Below, piece after piece: positions 3,651 to 18,254 of a stretch of 32,000 nt of DNA. A model generated the notes under the pieces. The model did not search any database, was not told the DNA's origin, and was given only the letters and a program-made list of their open reading frames with translations. Both the position numbers and the translations under genes were made by a program. Source of the stretch: Limnohabitans sp. 15K (lineage in GTDB: Bacteria > Pseudomonadota > Gammaproteobacteria > Burkholderiales > Burkholderiaceae_C); contig NZ_NESM01000001.1 of NCBI RefSeq assembly GCF_002778285.1, positions 1,121,934-1,153,933 of the forward strand. Direction: 5' to 3'. The first letter of the stretch is position 1, and the number at the start of each line of letters is the position of its first letter.

Positions 3651-3857
3651 TTGCAGTGATCAAAGCGAGTTCTTGTCAAAAAATTTCGACAATTCATTTT
3701 GATCACTCAAGTCGATGGCGTCTGTGAACCAACGAACCGAATCGCTCAGAACAAGCAGCACGACTCGACACCGGTCCCAGACGCGCGACGGGTTCAGGCG
3801 GCTTGAACTGTTGACCGCCTTTAGCAGGCCCGTTACTTACTCAACAGTGACGGACTG

Positions 3858-3878
3858 GTTCAGGTAGTGAGTAATTTT
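3858..3878 (+). repeat. Left terminal inverted repeat (IR-L), candidate attL
   Basis: GTTCAGGTAGTGAGTAATTTT read directly; its partner is at 16372-16392 on the opposite strand, with a single mismatch at position 7 (G vs C). Confidence 0.75.
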
Positions 3879-3893
3879 TGTGTTCATAAATTT

Positions 3894-5561
3894 CTATCCT
3901 CGACCGTCTTTTTTTTTGCAGACCAGAGAGACGGTGTCTGTTCCTGGAGTCACTTCGTATTCCCGAGCTTGCTGCCCATCTCGTACAACTTTGATGCCGT
4001 CATTGACGATGGGCAGATGCATTGTCAGCGTTAATTCGTGCTCTCGATTATCGCTTTCATAGCGTACATCGATCCGCTTTACCAAACCGCCGATGTACTC
4101 CTTCTTCTGCTCATCAGTCAAAACGTCCAGCGTCTCTACTTCGTCGCCAAACTCTTTCACCCAGTTCACCCACTTCCGTGATTCGTCTGTGCCAGCCAAT
4201 TCAAGCCGTGAATTAGCAAGCTCGGCTTCGATGTTACCTAGTGCTTCACGAATACGAACCAGCGTGACAGCAAAGCTGAGATCACTGACAGCACCAAGCA
4301 ATTTGTTCGCCTCAAGATTGCCGAGTGTTTCATTCATCTTCGAATGATCTTTCTGGAGTTTGCGAATTTTGGCTTGAAGCGCTTTGATCTCAGCATCAGT
4401 GCGGATCTTGATACCGTTCTCTTTGAGCACCCGATTTTTGACTTCTTCCTTCAGTGTGCTCGACTTCGCATGAAGTGATGTGACCAGCTCCCAGACCAAC
4501 TTATCAGTCTGGGGAATGTTCATGGCACGTGCAAACCCACAGCCCATGCCACGCTTCCACGGGGATTCTGATCCACCCTTCTCAACCCATTCACGCTCTT
4601 TGTTGGGACAGTAGTAAGAAGACTCAGCGCGGGACTTGATGATCCGACCACTGATGGGTCGACCACAATGCCCACAGAACATCAAATCACGCAAAAGATA
4701 GAAGTGTTTTGACGTTGCGTTTTTCTGAGACTGCCTCAGCACCTCGCTAGTACGCTTGTGCTGAGCCGCATTCCAAGTGATCTGGTCAATGATGCTTGGG
4801 CATTGAACTTCAATCGTCTGTCCAGACTTGCTGTCTGTATAGATGTAATGCCCAGAGTAGTGCGTATTTTTCAATAGCGCATTGATTGATCCAATCGTCC
4901 ACAAGCCTTTCTTGCGGCGTGGGCTGACACCATTGGAATCCAAGACTTGTTTGATGTACGTTGCGGCGCCACCTTTCACAATCTCTTGAAAGATACGCTT
5001 GACCCACTTGGCTTCTTCATCGACCACAACAAGTTTTCTGTTTTCGAGCTTGTAGCCGAATGGTGGAGGTCCGCCGTGCCAGCTGCCAGAACGAACACGG
5101 TTCATCTTGCCAAGCCGTGTTCGCTCAGCTCGTGTGACGTTGTCAAACTCAGCAACAGCATCCAGCAATTGCTTCAAAAACTTGTCTTGCGGGGATGACA
5201 GATCAAACTGCCCATCCTTGGTGTACAGCGTGACACCCTGCTTGTTGCACTCATACCGAAAGACAGAAGCGACTTGGTCGTTGCGTGACAAGCGAGACTG
5301 GTCATAAACCCACAGATGCTTGACCTGCCCTGCCTTCATCGCCACATAGAGCGCATTCAGTTCAGGACGATCAGCGATGTTTTCATGATGGGAGCTGCGA
5401 CCACCTTCGTTCCAAACCTTGAAGTCAAATCCAAGCTCTTTAGCTTTCTTGACCCCTAGGTCCCGCTGTGATTCAAGTGATGTGCCCTGCTCAGCCTGTG
5501 CGGTTGTAGACACACGGGTGTAGATGTGGAGCGTGTTATCTGCTGATGTTGCGCCTGTCAC
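3894..5561 (-). CDS. Large serine recombinase (integrase/transposase type), 555 aa, GTG start
   Basis: N-terminal resolvase catalytic motif IYTRVSTTAQ. Central recombinase domain (PPPFGYKL...WTIGSINALLKNTHYSGHY). Zinc-ribbon Cys cluster (CGHCGRPISG...YYCPNK...GCGF). A coiled-coil-like stretch follows (LQAKIRKLQKDHSKMNETLGNLEANKLL). Confidence 0.9.
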   Translation of the reverse strand: MTGATSADNTLHIYTRVSTTAQAEQGTSLESQRDLGVKKAKELGFDFKVWNEGGRSSHHENIADRPELNALYVAMKAGQVKHLWVYDQSRLSRNDQVASVFRYECNKQGVTLYTKDGQFDLSSPQDKFLKQLLDAVAEFDNVTRAERTRLGKMNRVRSGSWHGGPPPFGYKLENRKLVVVDEEAKWVKRIFQEIVKGGAATYIKQVLDSNGVSPRRKKGLWTIGSINALLKNTHYSGHYIYTDSKSGQTIEVQCPSIIDQITWNAAQHKRTSEVLRQSQKNATSKHFYLLRDLMFCGHCGRPISGRIIKSRAESSYYCPNKEREWVEKGGSESPWKRGMGCGFARAMNIPQTDKLVWELVTSLHAKSSTLKEEVKNRVLKENGIKIRTDAEIKALQAKIRKLQKDHSKMNETLGNLEANKLLGAVSDLSFAVTLVRIREALGNIEAELANSRLELAGTDESRKWVNWVKEFGDEVETLDVLTDEQKKEYIGGLVKRIDVRYESDNREHELTLTMHLPIVNDGIKVVRDGQQAREYEVTPGTDTVSLVCKKKDGRG

Positions 5562-5674
5562 GGAATGTCTCTCAATATTCTTTATTTTGCCTAAAAACTA
5601 AGCATATTCCCTTTGACATCAAATTCCTACACGTCATTGGAAAACACCAGCAAAATATGCCAATTTTGAATTAA

Positions 5675-5701
5675 TCAAGCGTCTAGTAACGGGACGCTTG
5701 A
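5675..5701 (+). repeat. Hairpin repeat copy A (9-bp arms, 9-nt spacer)
   Basis: TCAAGCGTC TAGTAACGG GACGCTTGA. The central 21 nt match copy B (12486-12512) at 19/21 in the same orientation. It lies 2 nt past the stop of the 5703-6605 gene. Confidence 0.65.
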
Positions 5702-5702
5702 A

Positions 5703-6605
5703 TCACCAGATCGCTCCACGCACATACCGCTGACGCAATCTGTTCCAGTTGATTTCGCTGATGCCAGGAGGACTCCATTTCCCTTCATCGACTGCTTTGT
5801 CCATCGCCTTCTTTTGTTCATTTGTCCATCGCTTGCGTGATTTGACAGCCTCATAAGACGGGAACTGACCAATTTCGGCATTAGCAATCAATGCTTCGGC
5901 TCGATTAGTCATACGAATGACAGCAACACGCATAACCCTCTCCTTGAGAATTCTGTCTTTCAGTGGCTCGCCTGCACGCCTCTTATGCAGAGGCGAAATC
6001 CCAAGTTCCGCACCGATGTCATACAGGTCCATCTTGATTGGCTTATCACCAGTTGATGGATGTGTCATTTCATAGTCAAGCATTGATCGCATGTGCCAGA
6101 CACGAACAGCCGATTCAAGAACTTTCATTCGGATGCCCTTGACCTTCAGCAATCGGAACTGAGCATCGCCTTTCCTGATCTTGCGATCCTCAATTTCACG
6201 AATGAGCTCTAAGAACTGACGTTTTAGCGTCTTCTCCGAAATGTTCGTCGGAATGCTTAGCAACATGCGTTCTGAATTCCGAAGATGCTCATGCAACGAC
6301 ATCTCATCCACACGTTCTATCTTCGGCGGTGTCATCTGCTCTTGAAATAGTGCGAATCCAGTGTCGATCCACCATCCAGCGAAGTCCTTTGAAAGGACAT
6401 CACCAAAAGCCTGCCAGACCTGTTTTAGATCTGGATCAAGCGTCTTTCCCTTCTGCTTGCACACCCACCAGTAATCCTTGCTACAGCGCAAAGCCTCAAA
6501 CCACCATCGGTAGGGACTTACAGCCGCCCGCTCAAGTATTTCGAAATGGCTACGGGCTGTAAAGCCACTTATGCCCTTAAAAAAGAGTGTATTTTTTTCG
6601 TTCAC
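5703..6605 (-). CDS. Hypothetical protein with a probable C-terminal HTH, 300 aa
   Basis: Long ORF, divergent from the 6729 operon. Trp-rich N-terminus (RWWFEALRCSKDYWWVC). The segment MDLYDIGAELGISPLHKRR...RVAVIRMTNRAEALIANAE looks HTH/sigma-region-4-like. No family recognised. Confidence 0.7.
   Translation of the reverse strand: MNEKNTLFFKGISGFTARSHFEILERAAVSPYRWWFEALRCSKDYWWVCKQKGKTLDPDLKQVWQAFGDVLSKDFAGWWIDTGFALFQEQMTPPKIERVDEMSLHEHLRNSERMLLSIPTNISEKTLKRQFLELIREIEDRKIRKGDAQFRLLKVKGIRMKVLESAVRVWHMRSMLDYEMTHPSTGDKPIKMDLYDIGAELGISPLHKRRAGEPLKDRILKERVMRVAVIRMTNRAEALIANAEIGQFPSYEAVKSRKRWTNEQKKAMDKAVDEGKWSPPGISEINWNRLRQRYVRGAIW
6384..6401. repeat. Palindrome family copy 1 (GTCCTTTGAAAGGACATC)
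   Basis: This 18-mer is identical to 12515-12532. The core GTCCTTT-G-AAAGGAC is a 7+1+7 palindrome. It lies inside the 5703-6605 CDS, where the minus strand encodes DVLSKD. Confidence 0.7.
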
Positions 6606-6728
6606 GGTTATCAGTTTAATTCATATTGATAATTTTATTTGATAGCGAAATACAGTTCATACATCGACAAGACGAAAGCAATTCAGCCCAAGTTTGATGT
6701 TGATACCGCTCAACTAAAGGAGATACCT

Positions 6729-7544
6729 ATGAGCAAAAAGAACGTCGCAGCCGCTGCTAAAAATTCCGCAGCAATTCCAACTCAGTCCACCGGCGCAAGC
6801 ATCAGCACCACGATGATGCGACGCATCAGCGATCTGGCGATTCGCCGCGAAGCGTGGGAGACCACTGAGTACAACCGCTCCAATCAAGCTCTTTATGGCG
6901 TGATTGCAGAGTGTCTCAACCTGTACCTCGATTTGACAAGCGGTACAGACATCAAATTGAAGAAGCAAGGGCTGGAAAACTTCATCAAGACGAAAGGGTA
7001 TGTTTTCAAAGAAAGCTCGCCACTTTCCTTGAAAGTCATCCGCTGTGTGTTCGGTGATCGTGACCGTCGCCGCCTGTCGACGTATCACACCGTCCTGCTT
7101 GCTGCAATTGCCGATAAATGGGCAGTGAGCGATGTTGCAAAAAATATTGCCGATTGCGGCGGCGTGCAGGAAATCTCCATGCGAAAGCCCGGTGGCATGT
7201 CTGCAAAAGACAAAGCAAATGCTGCTCGTGCCTCACTGATGAATCAGTCAATTGCTACGCTGAGCAGTGATGCAATTTTCAAGCAGTTCAACAAGGAACA
7301 TGAAGCAGAGACCGCTGTCGCAGTTATGACTCTAAACAGCGATGGTACTTACAGCGTTCACTGTGTAGTCCGAAGCGCAACCGCAGTCAATGCAGCACTG
7401 GCGGGGTATTTCTCCGCCAACAAAGAAGTCTTGGTCGGGCTTCAAGAGCAACAAAAAGCGCAAGCCGCCGAGGCTGAAAAAGCCCAATTAATTGCGAACG
7501 CGGTATCAGCCGCCAACGATGCACAGACGGAACTTGCCGCCTGA
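6729..7544 (+). CDS. Hypothetical protein, 271 aa, with an Ala/Gln-rich coiled-coil-like C-terminus
   Basis: ORF 6639-7544 trimmed to the ATG at 6729, which is preceded by AAGGAG (6718-6723). No family recognised. Confidence 0.7.
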   Translation: MSKKNVAAAAKNSAAIPTQSTGASISTTMMRRISDLAIRREAWETTEYNRSNQALYGVIAECLNLYLDLTSGTDIKLKKQGLENFIKTKGYVFKESSPLSLKVIRCVFGDRDRRRLSTYHTVLLAAIADKWAVSDVAKNIADCGGVQEISMRKPGGMSAKDKANAARASLMNQSIATLSSDAIFKQFNKEHEAETAVAVMTLNSDGTYSVHCVVRSATAVNAALAGYFSANKEVLVGLQEQQKAQAAEAEKAQLIANAVSAANDAQTELAA

Positions 7545-7598
7545 ACGAAATCGAGTGCGGGACCTTTCCCGCACTCACTAACCAGTAAAGGAATTCAA

Positions 7599-8273
7599 AT
7601 GATGAACGACAAAGAATTTTTGCCCATATCTCTTGATGAGATTGTGATTTCTGATGTCCTTTCAAAGGACATGTTGACGAAGATCGTCAACAAAGTGATC
7701 CCATTTCCCGCTTTTGGAAAATGCGGAATCATCCTTCACGGACCGTACGGAACCGGAAAGACAACGCTGGGGAAACTGATCCCCGATTTGATGGAGAAAG
7801 CGCGCGGCGGGTGCAATGCTCACTCCGATTTTTATCAATGTGCGCAGGGCATGAATGGCGTGACATTGGTAAGTCAAATTCAGACAGCGACTCAGTACGT
7901 CAGTCTGAATGGCAGCGGTCTTCACTATTCCATCTTGGATGAGGTGGACAACATGACCGTAGCTGCCCAAGCATCACTCAAGGCAATCATGACGGGACTG
8001 CACGGTATTTTCATCATGACCACAAACGACATCACGGCTGTGGACAAGGGGGTCGTGAACCGCAGTCACGTGATTCACATGATGGCAGCGAAACCGCATG
8101 ACTGGCTGCCATTGGTCAAGCGAGTGATTACAGCTTGCGGTGCACCTTTACCGCCTGATGCGTCATTGATTCCAGTGATCGGGGCGTGCAACGGGTCTGC
8201 CCGTGACATCTGTAGTGCCGCTGTCGAAGTTGCAATCCAGTCAATTCAAACAGGAGGCTCTAATGTGCTCTGA
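7599..8273 (+). CDS. Small AAA+ ATPase, clamp-loader (RFC small subunit / gp44)-like, 224 aa
   Basis: Walker A HGPYGTGKTTLG, Walker B ILDEVDNM followed by AAQASLKAIM (like the RFC DEAD..T..AQ.ALR box), then IFIMTTN and VNRSHVI (SRC-like position). Confidence 0.85.
   Translation: MMNDKEFLPISLDEIVISDVLSKDMLTKIVNKVIPFPAFGKCGIILHGPYGTGKTTLGKLIPDLMEKARGGCNAHSDFYQCAQGMNGVTLVSQIQTATQYVSLNGSGLHYSILDEVDNMTVAAQASLKAIMTGLHGIFIMTTNDITAVDKGVVNRSHVIHMMAAKPHDWLPLVKRVITACGAPLPPDASLIPVIGACNGSARDICSAAVEVAIQSIQTGGSNVL
7653..7673. repeat. Palindrome family copy 2 (perfect 19-bp palindrome ATGTCCTTTCAAAGGACAT plus flanks)
   Basis: The reverse complement of 7653-7673 is identical over 21 nt to 12512-12532 (CATGTCCTTTGAAAGGACATC). 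It lies inside the AAA+ CDS and encodes DVLSKD. Confidence 0.8.
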
Positions 8274-8622
8274 AGACGAACGCTTCGATCTGATTAGAAG
8301 CAAATTAGATGTCTGTCTTTACTGTGATCAAGAATACATTTCGCGTGAGTATTGGAGTATGAAGTCACTCATATTAGAGTATTGCACGCTTTTCTCACCG
8401 AAATCCGAAAATGATTTTGCAGCAAGCACTTGCCTTTGCATTATTGATCTTGCCCTGTTCCTTGATGTAGATGAGATCAATCCAACCTCATCAATTGAAC
8501 TAAGTCGCCTGCTCCGCATTGATGAAGAATTGAAGTTGTATTGTCAGAATCAATTTCTGAATAATCACCGAATTCCGATTGAAAAACTAAAAATTGCGAC
8601 AGATGCTTTAGCAATGATTTAG
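8263..8622 (+). CDS. Hypothetical protein, 119 aa
   Basis: ORF 8203-8622 trimmed to the ATG at 8263, which is preceded by AGGAGG (8252-8257). It overlaps the upstream stop by 11 nt, suggesting operon coupling. Confidence 0.6.
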   Translation: MCSEDERFDLIRSKLDVCLYCDQEYISREYWSMKSLILEYCTLFSPKSENDFAASTCLCIIDLALFLDVDEINPTSSIELSRLLRIDEELKLYCQNQFLNNHRIPIEKLKIATDALAMI

Positions 8623-8702
8623 CCAATGTTAGCAACACATCAGCCTGATAAAAATCCAGCCTTGTGCAGGAATGCCAGTCAATTCAACTTTGAGGTAAAA
8701 TT

Positions 8703-8897
8703 ATGGAACAGAAAAAATTTCGTTTTCAAGTAAAAGTCAGAGCGGAACTTGTTTATATTAAAGAAGTGTATTTATCTGATCGCGAATCCGCAGCGGAGTA
8801 TGCCAACCATATTCTTGATAACGAGATTTTCGAGGACTGGGAGTTTCATTTATATGAAACTGGTGAATCATCATGCCGAATTTACGAAGAAAAATAA
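8703..8897 (+). CDS. Small acidic hypothetical protein, 64 aa
   Basis: ATG preceded by GAGGT; followed directly by a terminator hairpin. Confidence 0.5.
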   Translation: MEQKKFRFQVKVRAELVYIKEVYLSDRESAAEYANHILDNEIFEDWEFHLYETGESSCRIYEEK

Positions 8898-8904
8898 ACT
8901 AATT

Positions 8905-8927
8905 GCCAGCCTTGAGCTGGCTTTTTT
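8905..8927 (+). terminator. Rho-independent terminator between convergent genes
   Basis: GCCAGC CTTGA GCTGGC followed by TTTTTT. An A-rich run upstream means it could work in both directions. Confidence 0.7.
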
Positions 8928-8947
8928 GTTGTCCTTTAGCAGGACGA

Positions 8948-9550
8948 TCACGCCAGTAATTCCACTGCCGAACGCATAAGCTTGGGATTGCTCTCAATGT
9001 ATTTCTGGGTGACTGCCATGCTGCGGTGTCCTGCCAAATCCATCAACACGCGAACCGATACGCCCATCTCACTGAGCTTTGTGATAAAAGTTCTTCTGGA
9101 GCTGTGGGATGAGCCGCCAGTGATACCAGCGCCCTTGTACAAGTAATGAAAATGCTGTGCTAATGTTGACGCTGTGAACCCGCGATTGGGGTTTTTCTGT
9201 GTCGTGAACAATGCACGGGTAGTGTCCGTCATGGTCACAGCCTTCAAGTCTTTCAACTTGAAGCGGGTCTGCAAGTAATTCTTAATTTCTTCCTGCGCTT
9301 TCGCAGACAAGATAACGGTCCTGCCCCGTGATCCCTTCGTCTGATCTGCCGACAGTCGAATTTCTTCAACGATCTCACCAGTCGGGGTGAGCACGTCACA
9401 CAGACGCAGTGCAGCAAGTTCGCCCACGCGCATTCCTGTTGCATTGAGCACGACGAACATGGCGCGATTGCGCGTGCTGTGTTTGCGACTTGCGATGTAC
9501 AGCAGGACTTTGCGAACCTCTTTTTCTGAGAGAACTTTTGCTTGGGACAT
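8948..9550 (-). CDS. Small tyrosine recombinase (catalytic domain only, FimB/FimE-sized), 200 aa
   Basis: TGMRVGELAALRLCDV (catalytic Arg region), HSSRRTFIT (HxxR box) and LAGHRSMAVTQKYI (His and the nucleophile Tyr). Confidence 0.85.
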   Translation of the reverse strand: MSQAKVLSEKEVRKVLLYIASRKHSTRNRAMFVVLNATGMRVGELAALRLCDVLTPTGEIVEEIRLSADQTKGSRGRTVILSAKAQEEIKNYLQTRFKLKDLKAVTMTDTTRALFTTQKNPNRGFTASTLAQHFHYLYKGAGITGGSSHSSRRTFITKLSEMGVSVRVLMDLAGHRSMAVTQKYIESNPKLMRSAVELLA

Positions 9551-9963
9551 TTCAGACTTTCCTTACATATCAAATGATTAACGTGTATTTAGTCTCTTCC
9601 CTTTGATTCGGTCGGACAAGCCTTTTGGCGAAATATTGGAACGTCAATGATTTCAAGCACTTACGACAGGACCAAATGAAATATGAATTTGTTTTGGTTT
9701 TCTGACGTGTCGTGGATCTGAGCGTCTGACGCGCCCACACATGCTTTGTGTCGACGGATCAGAAATATTCGCTTGTACTTGGATCTGATGCGTTCGTGTG
9801 CGTAAGCATGACTTCCCGCGTGCCACTGCGCTAGCTAACCAGCTCATGCTTGTTGACTGCTAGCGCTGGTACCGCATTTTTAGCTACTAATCAAGTTCAA
9901 TTTCAACTCTCTCAATCGATCGATACTGCTCTAGAATTGATAACCGTTTAATTTGGAGACAAA

Positions 9964-10806
9964 GTGAAAAAATACCTACTGTTGCTCGCATCGTGTCTGA
10001 TTACAGCCACCAATGCACAAGAAGTCGTGAACTATGAGTACACAAATCACGAAGGAAAAGTTCAATCCGTTGAAGCAACTCTGCGAAAGCCAACAGGTGC
10101 ATCCAATAACAAAGCAATCGTGATTCTTCATCATGCTGGTGGATGGTCAGAAGGAACGACCAGTCAATACGCAGAGATGTTCTCTGCCAATGGATATACG
10201 ACACTTGAACCTCGCATGTTCAACATGCGCTCACAGATGAAAAACAGCGCTGAGCACCTGTCGCAAGCTATGGGCGGGTTGACTTATTTGGCAGCTCAAC
10301 CTGGCGTTAACAAAGACAAGATTTCATTGATGGGGTTGTCTTTTGGCAGCTGGATTGCTGCTTATGCAGGCACAGAATGGGCAAGTCAAAAATTCACTGA
10401 TGGCAAATTGAAGTACAACAAGATTGCCCCACTGTATGCGGTCTGCTGGCTTCTCGAACGAGGTGCCAAGAAAGAACTGGGCTCGTTGCAAAATAAGTTT
10501 TATCCCGTCGACATGTATGACAAATGGACGCAGGTTCCATTGAAATTCTTTGCTGGGTCGGAAGACAATTACGATGACAAAGATCCGAAAACTTGTCAGA
10601 ACTTCATTGACGTAATTCCAGATGCAACCCAACGTTCTCTATCTTCTGTGAACGTGTACAAAGCGACTCATGGGTGGGACCAGAAGACCGCCACCTTTTT
10701 CGAAAAAGGTGCTTGCAAAGGTAAGGGCTGCAACAACACCAATCAAGCAAATCCTGAAGTCACTGCAAAAGTGAAAGAGGATTTGCTCAAATTCATCAAC
10801 GAATGA
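9964..10806 (+). CDS. Secreted alpha/beta hydrolase, dienelactone-hydrolase-like, 280 aa, GTG start
   Basis: GGAG lies 7 nt before the GTG. Signal peptide MKKYLLLLASCLITATNAQ. VILHHAGGW, nucleophile elbow GLSFGSW (GxSxG), and a C-terminal ATHGWD His. Confidence 0.8.
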   Translation: MKKYLLLLASCLITATNAQEVVNYEYTNHEGKVQSVEATLRKPTGASNNKAIVILHHAGGWSEGTTSQYAEMFSANGYTTLEPRMFNMRSQMKNSAEHLSQAMGGLTYLAAQPGVNKDKISLMGLSFGSWIAAYAGTEWASQKFTDGKLKYNKIAPLYAVCWLLERGAKKELGSLQNKFYPVDMYDKWTQVPLKFFAGSEDNYDDKDPKTCQNFIDVIPDATQRSLSSVNVYKATHGWDQKTATFFEKGACKGKGCNNTNQANPEVTAKVKEDLLKFINE

Positions 10807-10880
10807 TTTTCCGTCTTCCTCATACAACGGAGTCACATCAAGGCTAGGAATGAAATGGGCGTGGGTTCAAAGTTCAATTC

Positions 10881-11240
10881 ATGAACACGAACCCACACCT
10901 CGAATTTGAACTGGCGCAATTCACTGGCACAGAAAAGCTGTACCGATTGACCACACGCCATTTGTTGACTGATGGCACCATGTACCTCGCTGAACATGCG
11001 AAGTGCTATTGGCTGATGATTGCTGTGGCATCACATCTAATTGGGAAGATCGATGACCACTTCGCAGTTGCCAAGCTAAGTGTTGTGGGCAATGGTGCCG
11101 TGCTCACACTCGGTGATGGAAACGTAAATGTCTTCGCCAAGCAATCCATTGAATTCACAGATTTCCCATTGCCCGAAGTGAAGCTGTATTGCTGCTTTGA
11201 TGGGGATCACTGGATGATCATGCTTCCACGTGAATACTGA
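10881..11240 (+). CDS. Small conserved hypothetical protein, 119 aa (possibly the plasmid/ICE-borne DUF6876-type family)
   Basis: The N-terminal LAQFTGTEKLYRL...DGTMYLAEHAKCYWLMIAVASH pattern resembles a family I recall from plasmids and ICEs. The family number is from memory only. Confidence 0.65.
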   Translation: MNTNPHLEFELAQFTGTEKLYRLTTRHLLTDGTMYLAEHAKCYWLMIAVASHLIGKIDDHFAVAKLSVVGNGAVLTLGDGNVNVFAKQSIEFTDFPLPEVKLYCCFDGDHWMIMLPREY

Positions 11241-12020
11241 AATCCCAGACCATGTCATTTCTATTGACATGATTCACATGTCCTGTCACTGACAGCGAAC
11301 CTTCGGTTCACTAAGTGCTTTCGCCACTCATTTCGCTTCGCTCATTCGTATCGCTCAGCACTTCAGTTCGGATTGATTTGATGGGAAATATTCAGATCAC
11401 ATGAAGTGGTCTTTTGGACTTCTGAATTCATCTCTGTACTTGAGCCATAACCACCCTTCTAAAGCGAAGGGGCGGTTACTTTCGTTTTGTCCGTCGCCAC
11501 GTGACAACCAGTTGGATTCACAAGGGATGCTCAATGAGCATTGTCTCTACACGGCAATTCGTGCGTTTCAATGTGAATATGTTTATGGGCATTTTTCGTC
11601 CGCTCTTGGCTCTGCTCCTTACCGTTACCAACAGCGATTTTTAAAGCATCTCTCAGGTGTTTTTGATGCTATGGCGGACTTTGATCAAGTTGCTCTTCTT
11701 GTTCAGCTTGTCACCAAGCCGATTACCGTTTCGATGTGAGAAATGTTCCGATGATTCATCAGTCATTTAAGGCGTCCTTGCGGGGATAGTCTCACAAAGC
11801 GTGTGCTGAACATCACACGATCTACCGTCACACCATCAATAAGAACGGATTGTCGGCACACTTTGAAGCGGTGCTTGCTTGTCATTCAGTTTTGTCATCT
11901 TTATTTATGCCAATCCAGCCATAACCAAATATTTTCTTGACGAAACCAAACGGCACGGACTAGGAAAGAAACGGACACGGCAATAGGCTCAATCTCACTC
12001 ATCAACACAAGGAGATTTCA

Positions 12021-12467
12021 ATGAGTACGATTCTTTCGAGTCTGAAATTGGTCAACGCAAAGCGGGTGAATTCGATTGACCCTGTTGTCTTTCGTCGGAA
12101 CAAACTGAATGAAAAATTGAAGGTTCAGATCGCTATGGCACAGGCAATGAACAAAGGCGAGAAATTCACTGTCAAGCGCATGCGGAATGTGCGTGACGAT
12201 GTGACTGGTTTGACTGCAGTGGTTGAGGTCAGCAAGCGACTCAAGGCTTGGTGGTTCACGAACAATGACACCAAGAAGGTTGCCGTTCAAATCTTCTATG
12301 GCAACAAGGTCATCGATCTAGCGAAGGGTAAGAATGCCGTGGAAGTTGCGAACTGCGATGAACTGATCGCTGTGCTGTCGAAGTTGCAAGAGGCTGTGCT
12401 TGATGGATCGCTAGATGCTCAAATCGAACAGGCAGCGGATTCGGTGAAGGCGCGCTTTGCGAAGTAA
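12021..12467 (+). CDS. Conserved hypothetical protein, 148 aa
   Basis: Strong RBS AAGGAG 7 nt before the ATG. The sequence (SSLKLVNAKR...FRRNKL...WWF...AVLDGSLDAQIEQAA) resembles island-borne hypothetical proteins I recall from proteobacteria. No function known. Confidence 0.75.
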   Translation: MSTILSSLKLVNAKRVNSIDPVVFRRNKLNEKLKVQIAMAQAMNKGEKFTVKRMRNVRDDVTGLTAVVEVSKRLKAWWFTNNDTKKVAVQIFYGNKVIDLAKGKNAVEVANCDELIAVLSKLQEAVLDGSLDAQIEQAADSVKARFAK

Positions 12468-12485
12468 GCATGGCACTGGCAGATC

Positions 12486-12512
12486 GTGAGCGTCCAGTGA
12501 CGGGACGCTCAC
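12486..12512 (+). repeat. Hairpin repeat copy B (10-bp arms, 7-nt spacer)
   Basis: GTGAGCGTCC AGTGACG GGACGCTCAC, a perfect stem, 19 nt after the stop of the 12021-12467 gene. The core AGCGTC-y-AGT-r-ACGGGACGCT is shared with copy A. Confidence 0.7.
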
Positions 12513-12532
12513 ATGTCCTTTGAAAGGACATC
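12512..12532. repeat. Palindrome family copy 3 (perfect 19-bp palindrome ATGTCCTTTGAAAGGACAT plus flanks), intergenic
   Basis: Directly abuts hairpin B and is followed by a third dyad, CCAGC TAGC GCTGG, at 12535-12548. Confidence 0.8.
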
Positions 12533-12579
12533 TTCCAGCTAGCGCTGGCACCAGACTTCATGCAGTCATAAATACATGC

Positions 12580-12930
12580 ATGAAGATCAACGAATTCACC
12601 ACCAATCTCAATACCTACGTTGCCACTGTGCGTGTCGTCTTGCGCAATGGCACGACCATGGCGAAAACGCACGTCATCGCTGATGGCACCAATCAAGCTC
12701 GAATGTTGCTCATGCACTTGTATGGCGAGGGCAATGTCTTTTCAGTTCAAGCTCTTATGGATGAGGAAGTGACAGAGGGCACGAAGACGCTCACGGCATC
12801 TGAGTTGCAGGTCAAGTCACTGACTGACCGTGCCAAGCAACTCAATCAACAAGCGAAAGAGACGAAGGCACGGCAGTCACTAGAGAAGGCTCGCAAACGG
12901 GCGCAAGATATATCAGCCAATGTCTTGTAA
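12580..12930 (+). CDS. Hypothetical protein, about 116 aa
   Basis: ORF 12520-12930 begins with a TTG in the centre of the palindrome, so I prefer the in-frame ATG at 12580 (MKINEFTT...). No clear RBS. Lys/Gln-rich helical C-terminus. Confidence 0.5.
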   Translation: MKINEFTTNLNTYVATVRVVLRNGTTMAKTHVIADGTNQARMLLMHLYGEGNVFSVQALMDEEVTEGTKTLTASELQVKSLTDRAKQLNQQAKETKARQSLEKARKRAQDISANVL

Positions 12931-12941
12931 AAATTTCATGC

Positions 12942-13274
12942 TTATTTAAATCGAAATTTCTCCACACCTTTGTTAGTCGTAACACTAGCCTCCAGAACAT
13001 TGCAAATCCGACCTTTTGTACCAATCATGAACGATAGTGTTTGACCATATTTTAATTTTTTAGGCAACGCTATTTGTTTGTAATATTCGCAATTACCTCT
13101 ATTAAGTTCTAAATTGTGAATTTCGATTTCATCTGTTGTTGATTGAACATCAGCATACTGCACATATTCTCGCCATGTACTTGACCATTTTTGGTTGATT
13201 GATATCGACACAGATGATGCAATCGATGGCATTGATATTGCCAACCCGATAGCAATCAGTAATTTTCTTTTCAT
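12942..13274 (-). CDS. Small secreted hypothetical protein, about 110 aa
   Basis: ORF 12942-13403 trimmed to the internal ATG at 13274, which starts a typical signal peptide MKRKLLIAIGLAISMPSIASS. AT-rich codons. Confidence 0.55.
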   Translation of the reverse strand: MKRKLLIAIGLAISMPSIASSVSISINQKWSSTWREYVQYADVQSTTDEIEIHNLELNRGNCEYYKQIALPKKLKYGQTLSFMIGTKGRICNVLEASVTTNKGVEKFRFK

Positions 13275-13412
13275 TTTTACAACGGTGAGTTTTTTGTGAA
13301 TTGTTGCAGTCCAACAAGAAATTATCAAAAATATCGTCTGCAAAAATTGCATGCAATAACTGTAGGAATTTTTCAATCGTGGGAATAGGCTCATTGCTGT
13401 CAATCACAGTCA

Positions 13413-13808
13413 ATGAGTCAAGAAGTCTGTCAGAGCCGTTTCATCTTTTCCCAGTGCGTGCGTCACATTCGCACGTGGGAAGATGCGCATCTGCCTCTGA
13501 GTCAGAGTCGCATTGCTTTTGATCTGTTCATGCTCATTGCTCAGAGCAGCCAAATTGAACAGCCTATGACGCTAAAGGAATTGTTCAACTCACTCAAGTA
13601 CAGTGAACGTGGCGTTCGTTACGTGTTGGATCAGTTCGTTGACGGAGGCTGGTGCGAAATTGTTGGAAGCGAGAAAGATAAGCGTTTTCGTCTCGTTGTT
13701 GCATCTCAACGACTGACAGATAAGCTGGCAGAATATGAGCAGGTTGTGCTCAGCAATTACCGGTCATCACATCTAACACTATCAGTTAGCGCTGGCTCCA
13801 GCGTCTGA
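13413..13808 (+). CDS. Winged-helix (MarR/ArsR-like) DNA-binding protein, 131 aa
   Basis: MTLKELFNSLKYSERGVRYVLDQFVDGGWCEIVGSEKDKRFRLVVASQRL fits helix-turn-helix plus a beta-wing (DKR..RL). Divergent from the 13274 gene. Confidence 0.65.
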   Translation: MSQEVCQSRFIFSQCVRHIRTWEDAHLPLSQSRIAFDLFMLIAQSSQIEQPMTLKELFNSLKYSERGVRYVLDQFVDGGWCEIVGSEKDKRFRLVVASQRLTDKLAEYEQVVLSNYRSSHLTLSVSAGSSV

Positions 13809-13909
13809 TCCAGCACAGAGCTATCAATCCACTCCACTTACATCTGACATCAACCCCACAAAAGAGTCGCTCAAAACTGGCTTTCGTAGTTCCGAGACAG
13901 ATTGACTGG

Positions 13910-13936
13910 TTCAGCGTCCTATCACTGCACGCTTGA
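13910..13936 (-). repeat. Degenerate, inverted copy C of the hairpin repeat
   Basis: The reverse complement TCAAGCGTGCAGTGATAGGACGCTGAA matches copy A at 20/27. Only a 5-bp stem (AGCGT/ACGCT) remains. It overlaps the GACTGGTTCAG word at 13904-13914. Confidence 0.4.
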
Positions 13937-14269
13937 TCGTCATAGAGCATAAATCAACTGTTTGTACTGACTCAAGCATGCAACGATGCTTTCAAAAAGC
14001 CTCTTCATGGCTTTCAGATTAAAAGACAAAAAGTTTTTCAAGCTAGACAAACATGTCTCTTGCAAACAATAAATACTGACCGGCTTTCGTTCGTCTTTTG
14101 GACCTTAGGCAAGAAGATGCTCAGTCCTACGACCGGTAAGTAAAGTCTCTCGTTGACAAAGCCAAACGACTCAATCAGTAATCGTGTATTAACAAAGGGC
14201 TGATGGAGTTAAAAGCGCGAAAGAGAGACGGAATTCCGCTGCTGCTAAAAATTAATTATGAAATAAAAT

Positions 14270-14890
14270 TCACCCTGTAGCGTCAGCTCCATCACTCAAA
14301 TGCATTTTCTCGCCAAGATAATATAAGCCCCACGCAGTAACGGTAAGAAGTTGAACAAAAAATAGAATATAAATAGATGTTGCCAAAGCACTAAACCAGG
14401 GAATCAAAGCAGGTATAAGTGCAGCTTTGATGGCTGGCGCTAATGTAAGCGCTAATGCCGCACCAATTGTCAACAAAAAACTAAGCATTGTCAGATAGGC
14501 AAACATTACCGCCAAAAATAATCTACGATTTAATTCCAACTTATCAGTTAAAGCCCCTTCAATAAGAAATCTCATTTTCGGAGGATTGCCTGACATTGGT
14601 CTAAGCATCTCTTTGCCACCAAATGTTGCGACAGCCGCTAGAGCCGCCGTATAAAATCCAGGAAGATTTTGAACGAAACTTTGTATTTTGCTTATAAACC
14701 CACTACCACTCCAGATATCAGTAGGATTGGGCTTAATATATCCAAGATAGTCTAACAAACTAGGCAAAAGCCATGCGCCCCCTGTCACGACAGCCACTGC
14801 AATTGGAAAACCCCAGTTCACCCAAAAATGCACTCTATCTGGATGACTTATAGTCAAATAAGAAAAGGGTCTAAGCAACACTTTAAACAC
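14270..14890 (-). CDS. Multi-pass membrane protein, 206 aa, GTG start (third gene of the AT-rich operon)
   Basis: GGAG-N6-GTG lies 12 nt after the upstream stop. Hydrophobic spans by eye: WGFPIAVAVVTGGAWLLPSLL, LPGFYTAALAAVATFGG, LFLAVMFAYLTMLSFLLTIGAALALTLAP, and IPALIPWFSALATSIYILFFVQLLTVTAWGLYYL (probably two helices). No family recognised. Confidence 0.75.
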   Translation of the reverse strand: MFKVLLRPFSYLTISHPDRVHFWVNWGFPIAVAVVTGGAWLLPSLLDYLGYIKPNPTDIWSGSGFISKIQSFVQNLPGFYTAALAAVATFGGKEMLRPMSGNPPKMRFLIEGALTDKLELNRRLFLAVMFAYLTMLSFLLTIGAALALTLAPAIKAALIPALIPWFSALATSIYILFFVQLLTVTAWGLYYLGEKMHLSDGADATG

Positions 14891-14902
14891 AGCAACTCCA
14901 AT

Positions 14903-16081
14903 TCAATCTATTAAATCTTTCATCTTCAAAATAATTTCTTCGGAAATTTTAGTTTGATGGTCAAAATGTGGATTGTCTAACTCAATAATTTCTGATCGCG
15001 TAAAAGCATCTTCAAGTCGATGTGCATTAAATAATTTTTTCTTAATTTGCACATCATCCACATCTCGTTCTTTATATTCAATCCGTATAGTATCCGCATC
15101 AAACTTCCTATTATCAAATGCAGTCTTTAGCAATTTTTTAAGGTAGGGTATATCAGGCTTAACACTTTTCAAATTAACATGCATTTCCATTCTATCTATC
15201 TCCACCGGCACAGTTGAATCAAACGATTGATGCCCTTTATCAATTAAATCGACACCAACAATTCTGCCTTTGTTAATTATTTCAGTTAGAGCCCCATTAG
15301 GCAATGCTGAGAATGAAAAAGCATGTTTAACTTTATATTTTTTCTTTTTACCATCATCATCTAAAATATTTGTTGGCAGAGGAATTTCATCAAACCCAAC
15401 AAGACCACCCGACTTTTTCACCTGTTTATAAACATTATTTAACAAAGATACAATTTTTTGAGGATAAATGCCAGCCCCTGTTGTCATCAACATTTTCCCA
15501 GAAATTGATGATTCATTGAATTTAATCAGCACGTGCGCTGAGACTTCAATATCTTCATCAACTGCTTTATTTCCAAGACGTCTTGTCTTTGAGCCTCTTC
15601 TCCTATAAGCGACATCTGAACGATCAGGATCAGGTTTATTAAGTAATAGCACAAGCTCCCGCGCAGTTTTATCTGACGTCACCTGAGTTACTTCGATCGG
15701 AGTTTTTCCGCACTGTATTTCAATTCCAGACTTTATATATGGAATTATTTTTTCAACAATTTTCCACAGACTAACTTGAGGTGGAATTGGTATTCTTTCA
15801 TCAAGAGAATTTGTACTAACTTGAAGCTCGAAGAAATTGACAGTTCTATTATTGATTTTCACGATATTCCCTTTTTGACCTATGGAGCTTAGACCATTCC
15901 AAACCCTTATTGGAATTACATCATTTACTGCATAGGTTGCCAAGTCCCATATGTGCATTTCTCGTTTTCTGGACTTTATAAGTCTTAGCCGTGAAACTAC
16001 ATCACTCTTTGAGTTGTCTTTGCGAAAGACAAACTGATCGTCTCGTAACAGGTCGCTGATGTCACTGTAATTGGGCATCAT
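14903..16081 (-). CDS. Orphan soluble protein, 392 aa (second gene of the AT-rich operon)
   Basis: Long uninterrupted ORF in about 33 percent G+C DNA, which is very unlikely by chance. Its ATG overlaps the upstream stop (ATGA). Lys/Asp/Ile-rich. I recognise no Walker, DDE, HxK or HNH motif. Confidence 0.8.
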   Translation of the reverse strand: MMPNYSDISDLLRDDQFVFRKDNSKSDVVSRLRLIKSRKREMHIWDLATYAVNDVIPIRVWNGLSSIGQKGNIVKINNRTVNFFELQVSTNSLDERIPIPPQVSLWKIVEKIIPYIKSGIEIQCGKTPIEVTQVTSDKTARELVLLLNKPDPDRSDVAYRRRGSKTRRLGNKAVDEDIEVSAHVLIKFNESSISGKMLMTTGAGIYPQKIVSLLNNVYKQVKKSGGLVGFDEIPLPTNILDDDGKKKKYKVKHAFSFSALPNGALTEIINKGRIVGVDLIDKGHQSFDSTVPVEIDRMEMHVNLKSVKPDIPYLKKLLKTAFDNRKFDADTIRIEYKERDVDDVQIKKKLFNAHRLEDAFTRSEIIELDNPHFDHQTKISEEIILKMKDLID

Positions 16082-16383
16082 TCAAACCACAAGTCCACCA
16101 ACTCTGGTGCCACCTTCAATGTGAGTCTTTCTTGCCTGAGCTTGCCTTTCTTGTAGATAGAAAACACATGCTCAGCACCCAGCAAGCAGCCGTTGACTGA
16201 GCGTGTACCTGACTTCGTCAAAAGCCTTGCAATTGCCTCAAACGTCAGTTCTTCACGCTCACGTAACAAAAAGACTCTGTCAAACAGCCGTTGCTGACAG
16301 TTTGAGTAGTGTTTCTTGTAGATTTCCTTGCTTTTCAGTTTGACGACCATGACCACTCTTGTCTGATCGTCAAAATTACTCAC
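16078..16383 (-). CDS. Small HTH protein resembling the DNA-binding recombinase-domain segment of serine recombinases, 101 aa (or 90 aa from the ATG at 16350)
   Basis: LTFEAIARLLTKSGTRSVNGCLLGAEHVFSIYKKGKL parallels ATYIKQVLDSNGVSPRRKKGLWTIGSINALLKN in the element's own recombinase. The GTG at 16383 lies inside IR-R, 8 nt after the glmS stop, with no SD. The ATG at 16350 has a weak GAGTGG upstream. Confidence 0.6.
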   Translation of the reverse strand: MSNFDDQTRVVMVVKLKSKEIYKKHYSNCQQRLFDRVFLLREREELTFEAIARLLTKSGTRSVNGCLLGAEHVFSIYKKGKLRQERLTLKVAPELVDLWFE

Positions 16384-16392
16384 TAGCTGAAC
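16372..16392 (-). repeat. Right terminal inverted repeat (IR-R), candidate attR
   Basis: The minus strand reads GTTCAGCTAGTGAGTAATTTT. Its first G (16392) is the last base of the glmS TAG stop codon. Confidence 0.75.
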
Positions 16393-18254
16393 TATTCCAC
16401 GGTGACTGACTTGGCCAAATTCCTAGGCTTATCCACATCCGTGCCCCTTGCACACGCCGTGTGATAACTCAGCAATTGCAAGGGCACGACATGCAAGATG
16501 GGCGAGAGCACGCCGTAGTGTTCAGGCATGCGAATCACGTTGACGCCTTCACTGCTTTCAATTTTTGTGTCGCCATCGGCCAGCACATAGAGCACACCGC
16601 CTCGGGCGCGGACTTCCTGCATATTGCTCTTGAGCTTTTCGAGCAGCTGGTCGTTGGGTGCCACGGTGACAACAGGCATGGCGCTGGTCACAAGCGCCAG
16701 TGGGCCGTGTTTCAGCTCACCTGCGGCGTAGGCCTCGGCATGGATGTAAGTGATCTCTTTGAGCTTGAGTGCGCCTTCGAGGGCGATGGGGTAGTGCGTG
16801 CCCCTGCCCAAGAACAAGGCATTTTCTTTGCTGGCGAATTCTTCGGCCCAGCTGATGATTTGCGGCTCCAGCGCCAGCACGGCTTGCAGCGCGGCGGGCA
16901 GGTGGCGCATGGCTTTGATGTGCGCGGCTTCCTCTTCGTCGCTGAGGCGCCCTTTGGTCTGCGCCAGCGCCAGCGTCAACAAAAACAGCCCGGCCAGTTG
17001 GGTGGTGAAGGCCTTGGTGGAGGCCACGCCGATCTCGGCCCCGGCGCGGGTCACGTAGGCGTGTTTGCATTCGCGCACCATGGCGCTGGTGGACACGTTG
17101 CAGATGGTGAGCGTGTGCGTCATGCCGAGGCTCTGCGCGTGGCGCAGTGCGGCCAGGGTGTCGGCGGTCTCGCCGCTTTGGGTGATGGTGACGATCAGTG
17201 TGTTGGGGTTGGGCACCGATTCGCGGTAGCGGTATTCGCTGGCGATCTCGACCTGGCAGGGCACTTTGGCGATCGCCTCGATCCAGTACTTGGCCACGCA
17301 GCCGCTGTAGTAGCTGGTGCCACAGGCCAGGATCAGCACGTTGTCAATCGCTTTGAAGGTGGAATATGCGCCGTCACCAAACAGCTCGGGCGTGATGCCC
17401 TCCACGCCTTCGAGCGTGTCGGCAATCGCACGCGGCTGCTCGAAAATTTCCTTTTGCATGTAGTGGCGATAAGGGCCCAGTTCGGCCGCGCCGCTGTGGG
17501 CGTGCACGGTTTTCACGGCGCGGGTCACGGCCTTGTGGTCGCGGTCCACCACCCAGTATTTGCCCAGTTGAATGTCGACCACATCGCCCTCTTCCAGATA
17601 GACGATCTGGTCGGTCACGCCCGCCAGCGCCATCGCGTCGCTGGCCAAGAAGGTTTCGCCTTGGCCCACGCCCAAGATAAGCGGCGAGCCCGCACGCGCA
17701 CCGATCACGCGCTGCGGTTCATCTTTGTGGAACACGGCAATGGCATACGCGCCATGCAGCTGGCGGATGGCGGTTTTGACGGCTTCAAAAATATCGCCGT
17801 CGTACACGCTGTCCACCAAGTGGGCGATGACTTCGGTGTCGGTTTGGCTCAAAAACACATAGCCCTTGGCTTGCAAGGTGGCGCGCAGTTCTTCGTGGTT
17901 TTCGATGATGCCGTTGTGCACCAAGGCCACCTTGCCCGGCTTGGCGTCTGACGCGCCTGTGCCGTGGCTGAAGTGCGGGTGTGCGTTGTGCACCGAAGGC
18001 GCGCCGTGCGTGGCCCAGCGGGTGTGGGCAATGCCCGTGCCGCCTTCGATGTGGTCGGCGCTCACCTGGTCCATCAGCTCGGCCACGCGCGAGGTGCTGC
18101 GGGCGCGTTGCAAGCCCCCCGTGCCGCCGCTCAGGCTGGCCGCGTGCACGGCCACACCGCAGGAGTCATAGCCCCGGTACTCAAGCCGTTGGAGGCCCTG
18201 AACGAGGATGGGAACGATGTTGCGGGAAGAAACTGCGCCGACGATGCCACACAT
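16392..18254 (-). CDS. glmS: Glutamine--fructose-6-phosphate aminotransferase (isomerising)
   Basis: MCGIVGAV N-terminal Cys nucleophile, two SIS domains, canonical C-terminus [13 protein letters not shown], 620 aa. Confidence 0.97.

Follow-up and report, generated by a model that had tools for sequence, protein, structure and literature searches.

A PDC-M53 cassette, a candidate membrane-associated defense module, in an integrative element at glmS of Limnohabitans sp. 15K

We analyzed a 32,000-nucleotide (nt) stretch of the genome of Limnohabitans sp. 15K (contig NZ_NESM01000001.1, positions 1,121,934 to 1,153,933; hereinafter, the window), in which an earlier note had singled out three minus-strand open reading frames (ORFs), encoding a 101-amino-acid (aa) helix-turn-helix (HTH)-like protein, a 392-aa protein, and a 206-aa multi-transmembrane (TM) protein, as an undescribed three-gene defense operon. 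We find that the second and third of these genes, here called A and B, form a two-gene cassette that is almost certainly a member of PDC-M53, a family already catalogued by PADLOC as a defense candidate. The first gene is best read as part of the integration machinery of the large serine recombinase (LSR) element that carries the cassette and that is inserted at the 3′ end of glmS. The explanation that we prefer overall, with a chance somewhat better than even, is that of a self-contained PDC-M53 cassette acting against phages or mobile genetic elements at the inner membrane. The features of the cassette and its immediate surroundings are as follows.

14270-14890, minus strand: gene B (PDC-M53B), a 206-aa integral membrane protein; GTG start, ribosome-binding site (RBS) GGAG at 14899-14896
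14903-15862, minus strand: gene A (PDC-M53A), a soluble protein of very likely 319 aa; revised start GTG at 15862-15860, RBS AAGGGA at 15873-15868
14903-16081, minus strand: the 392-aa ORF, the longest frame over gene A, with an ATG start
15863-16077, minus strand: probable noncoding leader of the A-B cassette, including its promoter region, with a motif block kept in the window and in its closest relative, L001
16078-16383, minus strand: the 101-aa ORF of the ORF listing, with a GTG start, encoding the HTH-like protein; the first gene of the element, 8 nt after the glmS stop codon

In searches with the PADLOC hidden Markov models (HMMs), A matched the PDC-M53A profile PDLC04696 (E = 6.8e-26; residues 76 to 391 of the 392-aa ORF against profile positions 3 to 318 of 320) and additionally PDLC04694 and PDLC04698, and B matched the PDC-M53B profile PDLC04699 over its full length (E = 3.7e-49; profile positions 3 to 186 of 188). 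Thus, every testable part of the PDC-M53 definition was found in the window, namely, a match to the A HMM, a match to the B HMM, and the adjacent, same-strand gene order A>>B. In PHROGs, the two proteins match phrog_9879 and phrog_8257 (E = 4.9e-31 for B with the latter), both of which are families of unknown function, and searches of Pfam and NCBIfam with A, B, and the 101-aa protein recovered nothing above threshold. The matches to PADLOC and PHROGs supersede the statement that the 392-aa and 206-aa proteins could not be placed in any family, and the PADLOC entry likewise removes the label of an undescribed system. PDC stands for phage defense candidate, with S denoting single-gene and M multi-gene cassettes; the 145 cassettes of the set were obtained by guilt-by-embedding, that is, nominated because they are enclosed within BREX, DISARM, or type I restriction-modification (RM) systems, and PDC-M53 is cassette CAS_00171 (FAM_01320>>FAM_00730) among them (Payne et al., bioRxiv 10.1101/2024.01.29.577857). 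The only literature mention of PDC-M53 that we found is in a survey of Salmonella genomes, and a literature search by protein accession (E. coli, SfII, and Limnohabitans) returned no paper. The window copy agrees with the family in its full-length HMM matches, gene order, adjacency, and protein sizes, and it differs in nothing substantive: it is a divergent betaproteobacterial member, in which A shares 45 to 75% identity with its nearest relatives and about 20% with most of the family. It is set in an LSR element at glmS, and its A is annotated with a spurious 74-codon N-terminal extension.

A scan with the B profile across 185,579 species-representative genomes, one per species, identified at least 127 that encode B. 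The 80 B loci fetched come mostly from beta-, gamma-, and alphaproteobacteria, and a minority come from a few cyanobacteria, Chloroflexi, Nitrospira, Desulfovibrio-type bacteria, and Firmicutes metagenome-assembled genomes. With an iterated HMM, 81 of 83 loci proved to have an A homolog as the gene directly preceding B, in the same orientation; one of the other two stops at a contig end, and the second has just a short ORF in that position. The gaps between the two genes lie mostly between −4 and +12 nt, and even the distant pairs, found in phages and in several phyla, all match the same PADLOC models. Clustering of the neighbors in the PDC-M53 loci yielded no third conserved gene. Pairwise identities of A and B co-vary across loci (Spearman coefficient, 0.58), and B is the more conserved of the two in 99% of the locus pairs (median identities of 35% versus 21%). 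The surmise that the soluble and TM genes co-occur is therefore upheld in the form of a strictly linked pair, and we are confident that the unit consists of two genes, A and B, rather than of three.

The ORFs themselves are present as first described: all three are co-directional on the minus strand, the 101-aa and 392-aa frames (16078-16383 and 14903-16081) share the overlap ATGA, and a gap of 12 nt lies between the latter and the 206-aa ORF (14270-14890), whose RBS has the spacing GGAG-N5-GTG and not N6. Comparison with homologs indicates, however, that gene A very likely starts at the GTG at 15862 and encodes 319 aa, the 392-aa frame being too long. Homologs of A that are not flagged as partial measure 317 to 320 aa and align from about residue 75 of the ORF, and the PADLOC PDC-M53A profile begins at residue 76. 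The closest relative, a metagenome contig (L001) that carries the same island beside glmS, is 76% identical in DNA sequence and retains the start as a conserved AAGGGA-N5-GTG corresponding to 15862 of the window. The 74 codons upstream of this position cannot be aligned with L001, in which non-triplet indels occur and the frame is closed. The open frame of 392 codons, which had been taken as strong evidence of coding, is thus not borne out in its full length, given the homolog lengths, the start of the profile, and the indels in L001. A is under purifying selection relative to L001, as is B (ratios of nonsynonymous to synonymous differences per site [pN/pS] of 0.19 and 0.22, respectively). Because A most likely starts at 15862, about 215 nt from the 101-aa gene, the ATGA overlap is probably incidental, an artifact of choosing the longest ORF, and in place of the supposed tight coupling of the two genes there lies probable noncoding DNA (15863-16077). 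Within this leader is a candidate promoter that resembles the extended −10 type (TTGGCA at 15943-15938, a spacer of 17 nt including TGn, and TGTAAT at 15920-15915), a block whose sequence is conserved in L001, unlike that of its surroundings. A scan for sigma-70 promoters and terminators gave nothing above the shuffled expectation; it missed this block on account of the G at position 2 of the −10 hexamer. The promoter at 15943-15915 is accordingly a putative one, called manually from conservation.

Among 150 immediate neighbors in the PDC-M53 loci, PADLOC matches comprised mad2, mad3, mad8, type I and type IIG RM components, DrmMI, MkoA, MkoC, DpdJ, and capH, and Pfam matches comprised HsdR_N, phage integrases, resolvases, S24 peptidase/HTH_3 proteins, Q antiterminators, and ArdC. 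The defense-island setting that the earlier note had anticipated is thus seen in the RM, MADS, DISARM, and Mokosh neighbors and in the association with mobile elements, its strength being judged by counts of PADLOC and Pfam matches without a formal background. In Shigella phage SfII, the pair (SfII_50/49) lies between Q and the holin gene on the opposite strand, which is a moron slot; in E. coli, the cassette occurs in 9 of 5,426 complete genomes and, in the prophage inspected, occupies the same Q-holin slot. A PM2-like Vibrio prophage has a further copy at its end, and four more are on plasmids. This is the context expected of a defense or exclusion gene. The pairs of SfII and of the E. coli prophages share both slot and opposite-strand orientation with the superinfection exclusion morons of the lambdoid Q-S region, but we found no homology to characterized exclusion proteins, and most PDC-M53 copies lie outside prophages. 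In about 10 loci (L005, L006, L031, L038, L041, L043, L045, L049, L053, and L059), a gene of the XRE HTH family is found within three genes upstream of the pair; S24 peptidase domains also occur among the neighbors, and these XRE genes, which are unrelated to the 101-aa protein, could be prophage repressors or local regulators.

The alternative that the 101-aa HTH protein is a dedicated regulator, translationally coupled to a 392-aa sensor in a three-gene operon, draws on the common direction of the ORFs, on the ATGA overlap if the 392-aa frame is used, and on the XRE-type genes upstream of the pair in the loci just listed. It is contradicted by the distribution of the gene from both sides: of the 83 PDC-M53 loci, only the syntenic island of L001 has the 101-aa gene as well, and among 80 metagenome loci fetched via the 101-aa protein, none carries A or B. 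Moreover, the gene is linked to glmS and attL or to the LSR and attP, its domain is found fused to LSRs, and the 74-codon extension required for coupling is not conserved, whereas the RBS and GTG downstream of it are. We therefore regard the three-gene reading as highly improbable. In place of the operon proposed in the earlier note, we recognize a two-gene unit, A plus B, beside a gene of the element's integration machinery.

The 101-aa gene is a real one, judging from its conservation. It has 75 cluster representatives, full-length relatives of about 100 aa among them, and a conserved (M/V)SNFDD N terminus, and pN/pS values against seven relatives range from 0.19 to 0.39. Its closest relative (L001:7521-7826) contains a single in-frame TAG at codon 62, and the codons past the TAG are still under purifying selection (pN/pS, 0.28), which suggests recent pseudogenization, a sequencing error, or read-through. 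Among the 80 metagenome loci retrieved through the 101-aa protein, we detected glmS in 45, and at the junctions inspected the gene begins about 11 nt past the glmS stop codon. In the alternative position, it is found 40 to 90 nt after the LSR stop codon (L088, L090, L092, L113, L123, and L125). In two proteins (P0158, 710 aa; P0171, 726 aa), the 101-aa domain is fused to the C terminus of an LSR (residues ~620 to 716), separate from the PF07508 region at about residues 207 to 312. These fusions constitute a Rosetta-stone link of the 101-aa protein to LSR function. The possibility that the 101-aa protein is itself a Recombinase (PF07508) domain was considered and rejected: the window protein has no Pfam match at threshold, PF07508 included, and hhalign against the element's own LSR gave a probability of 0.05%. 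Hence, the proposed resemblance to the DNA-binding part of serine recombinases is not sustained. Of the two roles suggested along with it, that of a regulator of the module is disfavored by the absence of the gene from the other pairs except in L001, and that of an accessory or directionality factor of the element is favored because the gene tracks the LSR, attP, and glmS. Our best reading from these associations is accordingly that the protein would be an accessory or directionality-type DNA-binding factor. Like LSR accessory and recombination directionality factors, it is a small protein encoded beside attP and the LSR and has its domain fused to LSR C termini; it differs in that no homology to characterized directionality factors was found. 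Since both the integrated form (after glmS) and the attP form (after the LSR) exist, the gene swaps its upstream neighbor on integration and may thereby change its promoter.

The element that carries the cassette is delimited by the following features.

About 3847-16406: integrative element of approximately 12.56 kb, its two ends occupied by the LSR gene and the 101-aa gene
16412-16392, minus strand: attL, AAGTCAGTCAC followed by CGTGGAATAG, as determined against the attP-form contigs L090 and L092
3858-3837, minus strand: attR, CCAGTCCGTCAC followed by TGTTGAGTAA, compared with the same two contigs, at the far end of the element, with the displaced original glmS 3′ end
3894-5561, minus strand: LSR gene, with Resolvase, Recombinase, and Zn ribbon domains (Pfam E values of 1.5e-21, 1.4e-14, and 4.4e-05)
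16392-18254, minus strand: glmS, the host target gene, a 620-aa ORF with a GC content of 0.623

The crossover at attL lies in or beside GTCAC (16406-16402), and attR is followed in host DNA by a terminator-like hairpin (3819-3797). The attP of L090 (...CCAGTCCGTCACCGTGGAGTAGTTCAGCTAGTG...) holds a copy of the glmS 3′ end, and the last glmS codons and stop codon in the window are supplied by the element. Metagenome contigs preserve both the integrated form, in which glmS precedes the 101-aa gene, and the attP form, in which the LSR gene does so; in L090 and L092, LSRs 88 to 92% identical to that of the window sit directly upstream of the 101-aa gene. The glmS ortholog of L001 encodes SIS and GATase domains. 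In two more distant relatives of the element (L135 and L151), the LSR gene and the 3′ end of glmS face each other convergently, and glmS does not stand before the 101-aa gene; at one and the same target, the orientation is a different one. The element also encodes a 200-aa tyrosine recombinase (8948-9550, minus strand) and a small AAA+ ATPase (7599-8273, plus strand), both conserved in the sister elements L090, L092, L111, L117, L123, and L125. Just outside attR (2292-3650, minus strand) is a gene for a 452-aa protein that combines collagen triple-helix repeats with three DUF7151 repeats and a C terminus of the BclA_C/C1q-like type; the gene may be a separate acquisition (GC content of 0.52 versus ~0.60 for the host).

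Comparison of these elements reveals a variable cargo slot just downstream of the 101-aa gene. The slot is empty in L097 and L098, and elsewhere it holds low-GC DNA encoding an Mrr type IV restriction enzyme (L110:542-1459), a NERD-domain protein in an ORF of about 212 aa (L114, L116, L118, and L120), lipase/hydrolases, or GNAT plus EamA proteins (further slot loci L096, L088, and L090). PDC-M53 occupies it only in the window and in L001, and no other defense genes were detected with PADLOC and Pfam among the ORFs of the window's element that were scanned. The composition of the window is nested: GC content is about 0.60 in the host flanks, 0.467 in the element backbone, 0.454 in the 101-aa gene, 0.411 in gene B, and 0.341 in gene A. 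The earlier count of 20 G+C in 60 nt at 15061-15120 is exact, the claim that this is the most AT-rich DNA of the window holds (15001-15500 is the lowest-GC 500-nt block, with a GC content of 0.332), and the placement of the low-GC cassette as cargo at the glmS-proximal edge confirms that part of the earlier picture. The 460 nt that separate gene B from the next gene of the element (13809-14269) contain no ORF of 60 aa or more, no Rfam match, and no called terminator; they probably arrived together with the cassette because their GC content of 0.416 resembles it. Neither an Rfam search at E ≤ 1 nor a repeat search of 13400-16500 found anything notable.

Protein A is soluble, without a TM segment. 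A profile-based homolog search with A contributed no more than 7 additional sequences. Its AlphaFold2 model, built on 27 sequences (predicted local distance difference test [pLDDT], 81.8; predicted TM score [pTM], 0.68), has two alpha/beta domains along with a basic, disordered loop at about residues 89 to 103, in which the motif RRxxxK is conserved. His110 is invariant and Arg6, Leu73, Asp78, Ser108, and Asp215 are nearly so, against the background of a scaffold that is otherwise divergent. Protein B, whose multi-TM nature is borne out by both hydropathy and its model (pLDDT, 88.1; pTM, 0.84), has helices at residues 20 to 49, 65 to 89, 122 to 157, and 160 to 198, the second of which is kinked at an invariant LPGFY. 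From the model, and taking Arg122 and Arg123 as cytoplasmic, we infer four TM helices with both termini inside. The best-conserved parts of B are the Ala-rich second TM helix (AALAAVATF, within the invariant LPGFYxAxLAAxATF), the N-terminal RPFxYLxIxH, and the C-terminal YYLGERMH, which points to small-residue packing motifs in the second TM helix and to conserved cytoplasmic segments. The fold searches from which the earlier note had hoped for an answer yielded models for both proteins and no significant Foldseek relative in the Protein Data Bank (PDB) for either: for A, the best match was nonsignificant (E = 8.4e-3, TM score < 0.2), with mostly START and lipocalin-type folds recovered, and for B, the best E value was 0.66. 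Profile and sequence searches of PDB with the A, B, and 101-aa families likewise gave nothing meaningful. In BFVD, four uncharacterized siphovirus or uncultured-phage proteins (A0A8S5MSR5, A0A8S5S8L2, A0A6J5Q1Z2, and A0A8S5QGP5) share the full-length fold of A (Foldseek E values of 1e-8 to 1e-10, 9 to 13% identity); going by the predicted structures, these may be further prophage-borne members or relatives. RdgC was also considered as an identity for A and rejected: a weak full-length BFVD match to a phage model annotated as such (E = 5e-3) was recovered, but hhalign against E. coli RdgC gave a probability of 0.1%.

The layout of a small multi-TM protein beside a soluble partner had led the earlier note to invoke TM-effector CBASS and Pycsar, retron-TM, and Kiwa systems as relatives; these turn out to be layout analogies, as the defining components are absent. 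Indeed, a small multi-TM protein beside a cytoplasmic partner is what PDC-M53 has in common with the TM effectors of CBASS, Pycsar, and retrons, from which abortive infection by membrane damage is borrowed as a model. However, no CD-NTase or pyrimidine cyclase was matched by Pfam or PADLOC in any scanned element ORF, of the retron parts, neither a reverse transcriptase domain nor a noncoding RNA was found (no Rfam match at E ≤ 1 in 13400-16500), and no signaling-nucleotide-binding domain is recognizable in B. Kiwa offers the closer parallel, combining the ~200-aa, four-TM KwaA with the ~315-aa, two-domain soluble KwaB (DUF4868) in defense islands, and by analogy its membrane-associated sensing logic would be plausible for PDC-M53. 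Here too the components differ. A has no Pfam match at E ≤ 0.1, no PADLOC match to KwaB, and no significant PDB fold match, and it is not of the Rossmann-plus-DUF4868 type; B has no PADLOC match to KwaA and lacks the intracellular beta-barrel that KwaA forms from intracellular loop 1 and the C terminus, the model of B having only short strands in the loop at residues 97 to 121 and a 7-residue C-terminal tail.

The Kiwa parallel nevertheless raises the possibility of a reversed polarity, in which B would sense the perturbation of the envelope at phage attachment or DNA injection and a tethered A would be the effector, for example, an enzyme or nucleic acid binder using the Ser-x-His/Asp site and the basic loop at residues 89 to 99. 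Besides the matching parts list, this is in keeping with the catalytic-looking invariant residues and the conserved basic disordered loop (RRxxxK) of A, the median isoelectric point of A of 8.2, and the weak BFVD similarity of A to the RdgC-annotated phage model. We consider it unlikely: there is no KwaA or KwaB homology (PADLOC gave no Kiwa match, DUF4868 is absent, and the PDB fold matches listed include no Kiwa chain), the gene order is opposite to that of Kiwa, hhalign of A with E. coli RdgC is negative as noted above, and A diverges much faster than B, a pattern that is more usual for sensors.

We return to the PDC-M53 cassette as an inner-membrane module in which, at a less than even chance, A would be the sensor and B the effector. 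The fast-evolving cytoplasmic protein A would recognize an infection cue via a conserved pocket (Arg6, Asp78, Ser108-x-His110, and Asp215) and would then activate or release the slowly evolving, oligomerizing membrane protein B; B in turn would compromise the membrane or block DNA entry, with the infection being aborted or excluded. The sensor-plus-TM-effector module of the earlier note is thereby kept insofar as the linkage of the pair and its defense-related and mobile contexts speak for it, and revised insofar as the family was already catalogued and has two genes. Several points weigh against this explanation. The PDC set entered PADLOC explicitly as untested candidates (10.1101/2024.01.29.577857), no phenotype is on record for any PDC-M53 member, and other PDC candidates gave mixed results on testing, some of them failing. 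Neither A nor B has a relative, by fold or by sequence, that is informative, so that their biochemical activity is guesswork, and the invariant Ser-x-His/Asp of A could make it an enzyme effector rather than a sensor. Furthermore, the cargo slot also carries clearly nondefense genes (GNAT, EamA, and hydrolases), and the neighborhood evidence consists of counts lacking a formal background.

Some of the same observations fit the view that the pair hitchhikes in variable regions without an immune role, as an addiction or stabilization (toxin-antitoxin-like) module or with a different accessory membrane function for mobile elements, for instance, in envelope stress or in the handling of lipids or hydrophobic ligands. 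The pair is always on mobile or variable DNA, its slot is shared with nondefense cargo, the PDC candidates are unvalidated and include failures, and the top PDB folds of A are lipid-binding ones of the START/SRPBCC and lipocalin types. Those fold matches are nonsignificant, though (E > 8e-3, TM score < 0.2), and the protein sizes are atypical of type II toxin-antitoxin pairs. The recurrent adjacency to, or embedding in, RM, MADS, DISARM, and Mokosh genes and the moron placement in prophages are typical of defense genes. We hold a nonimmune role to be quite unlikely and a defense function of the pair to be probable. The more specific reading, which we put just short of an even chance, is that PDC-M53 would be a genuine anti-phage or anti-plasmid system with a mechanism lacking a characterized relative, either Kiwa-analogous at the membrane, where it would sense or block the entry of DNA, or based on a new pore-forming abortive infection effector. 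In it, an A protein with a conserved Arg/Asp/Ser-x-His site would be coupled to an oligomer of the four-TM B protein, neither being matched in PDB, and prophage morons and small integrative elements, the glmS-targeting LSR element among them, would disseminate the system.

If PDC-M53 is a true defense system, it would add a form of membrane-associated immunity built from two proteins that have no sequence or fold relative in PDB. The analysis supplies corrected gene models (319 aa versus 392 aa for A and two genes versus three for the unit) and conserved residues for mutation (Arg6, Asp78, Ser108, His110, and Asp215 of A; Arg7, the LPGFY motif, and His197 of B), and the homologs native to E. 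coli and Shigella (SfII_50/49) lend themselves to assays with standard coliphages. A small family of LSR elements is documented by the window as well; they enter glmS at its last codons, and their exchangeable cargo slot is a natural place to seek further defense genes in freshwater Betaproteobacteria.

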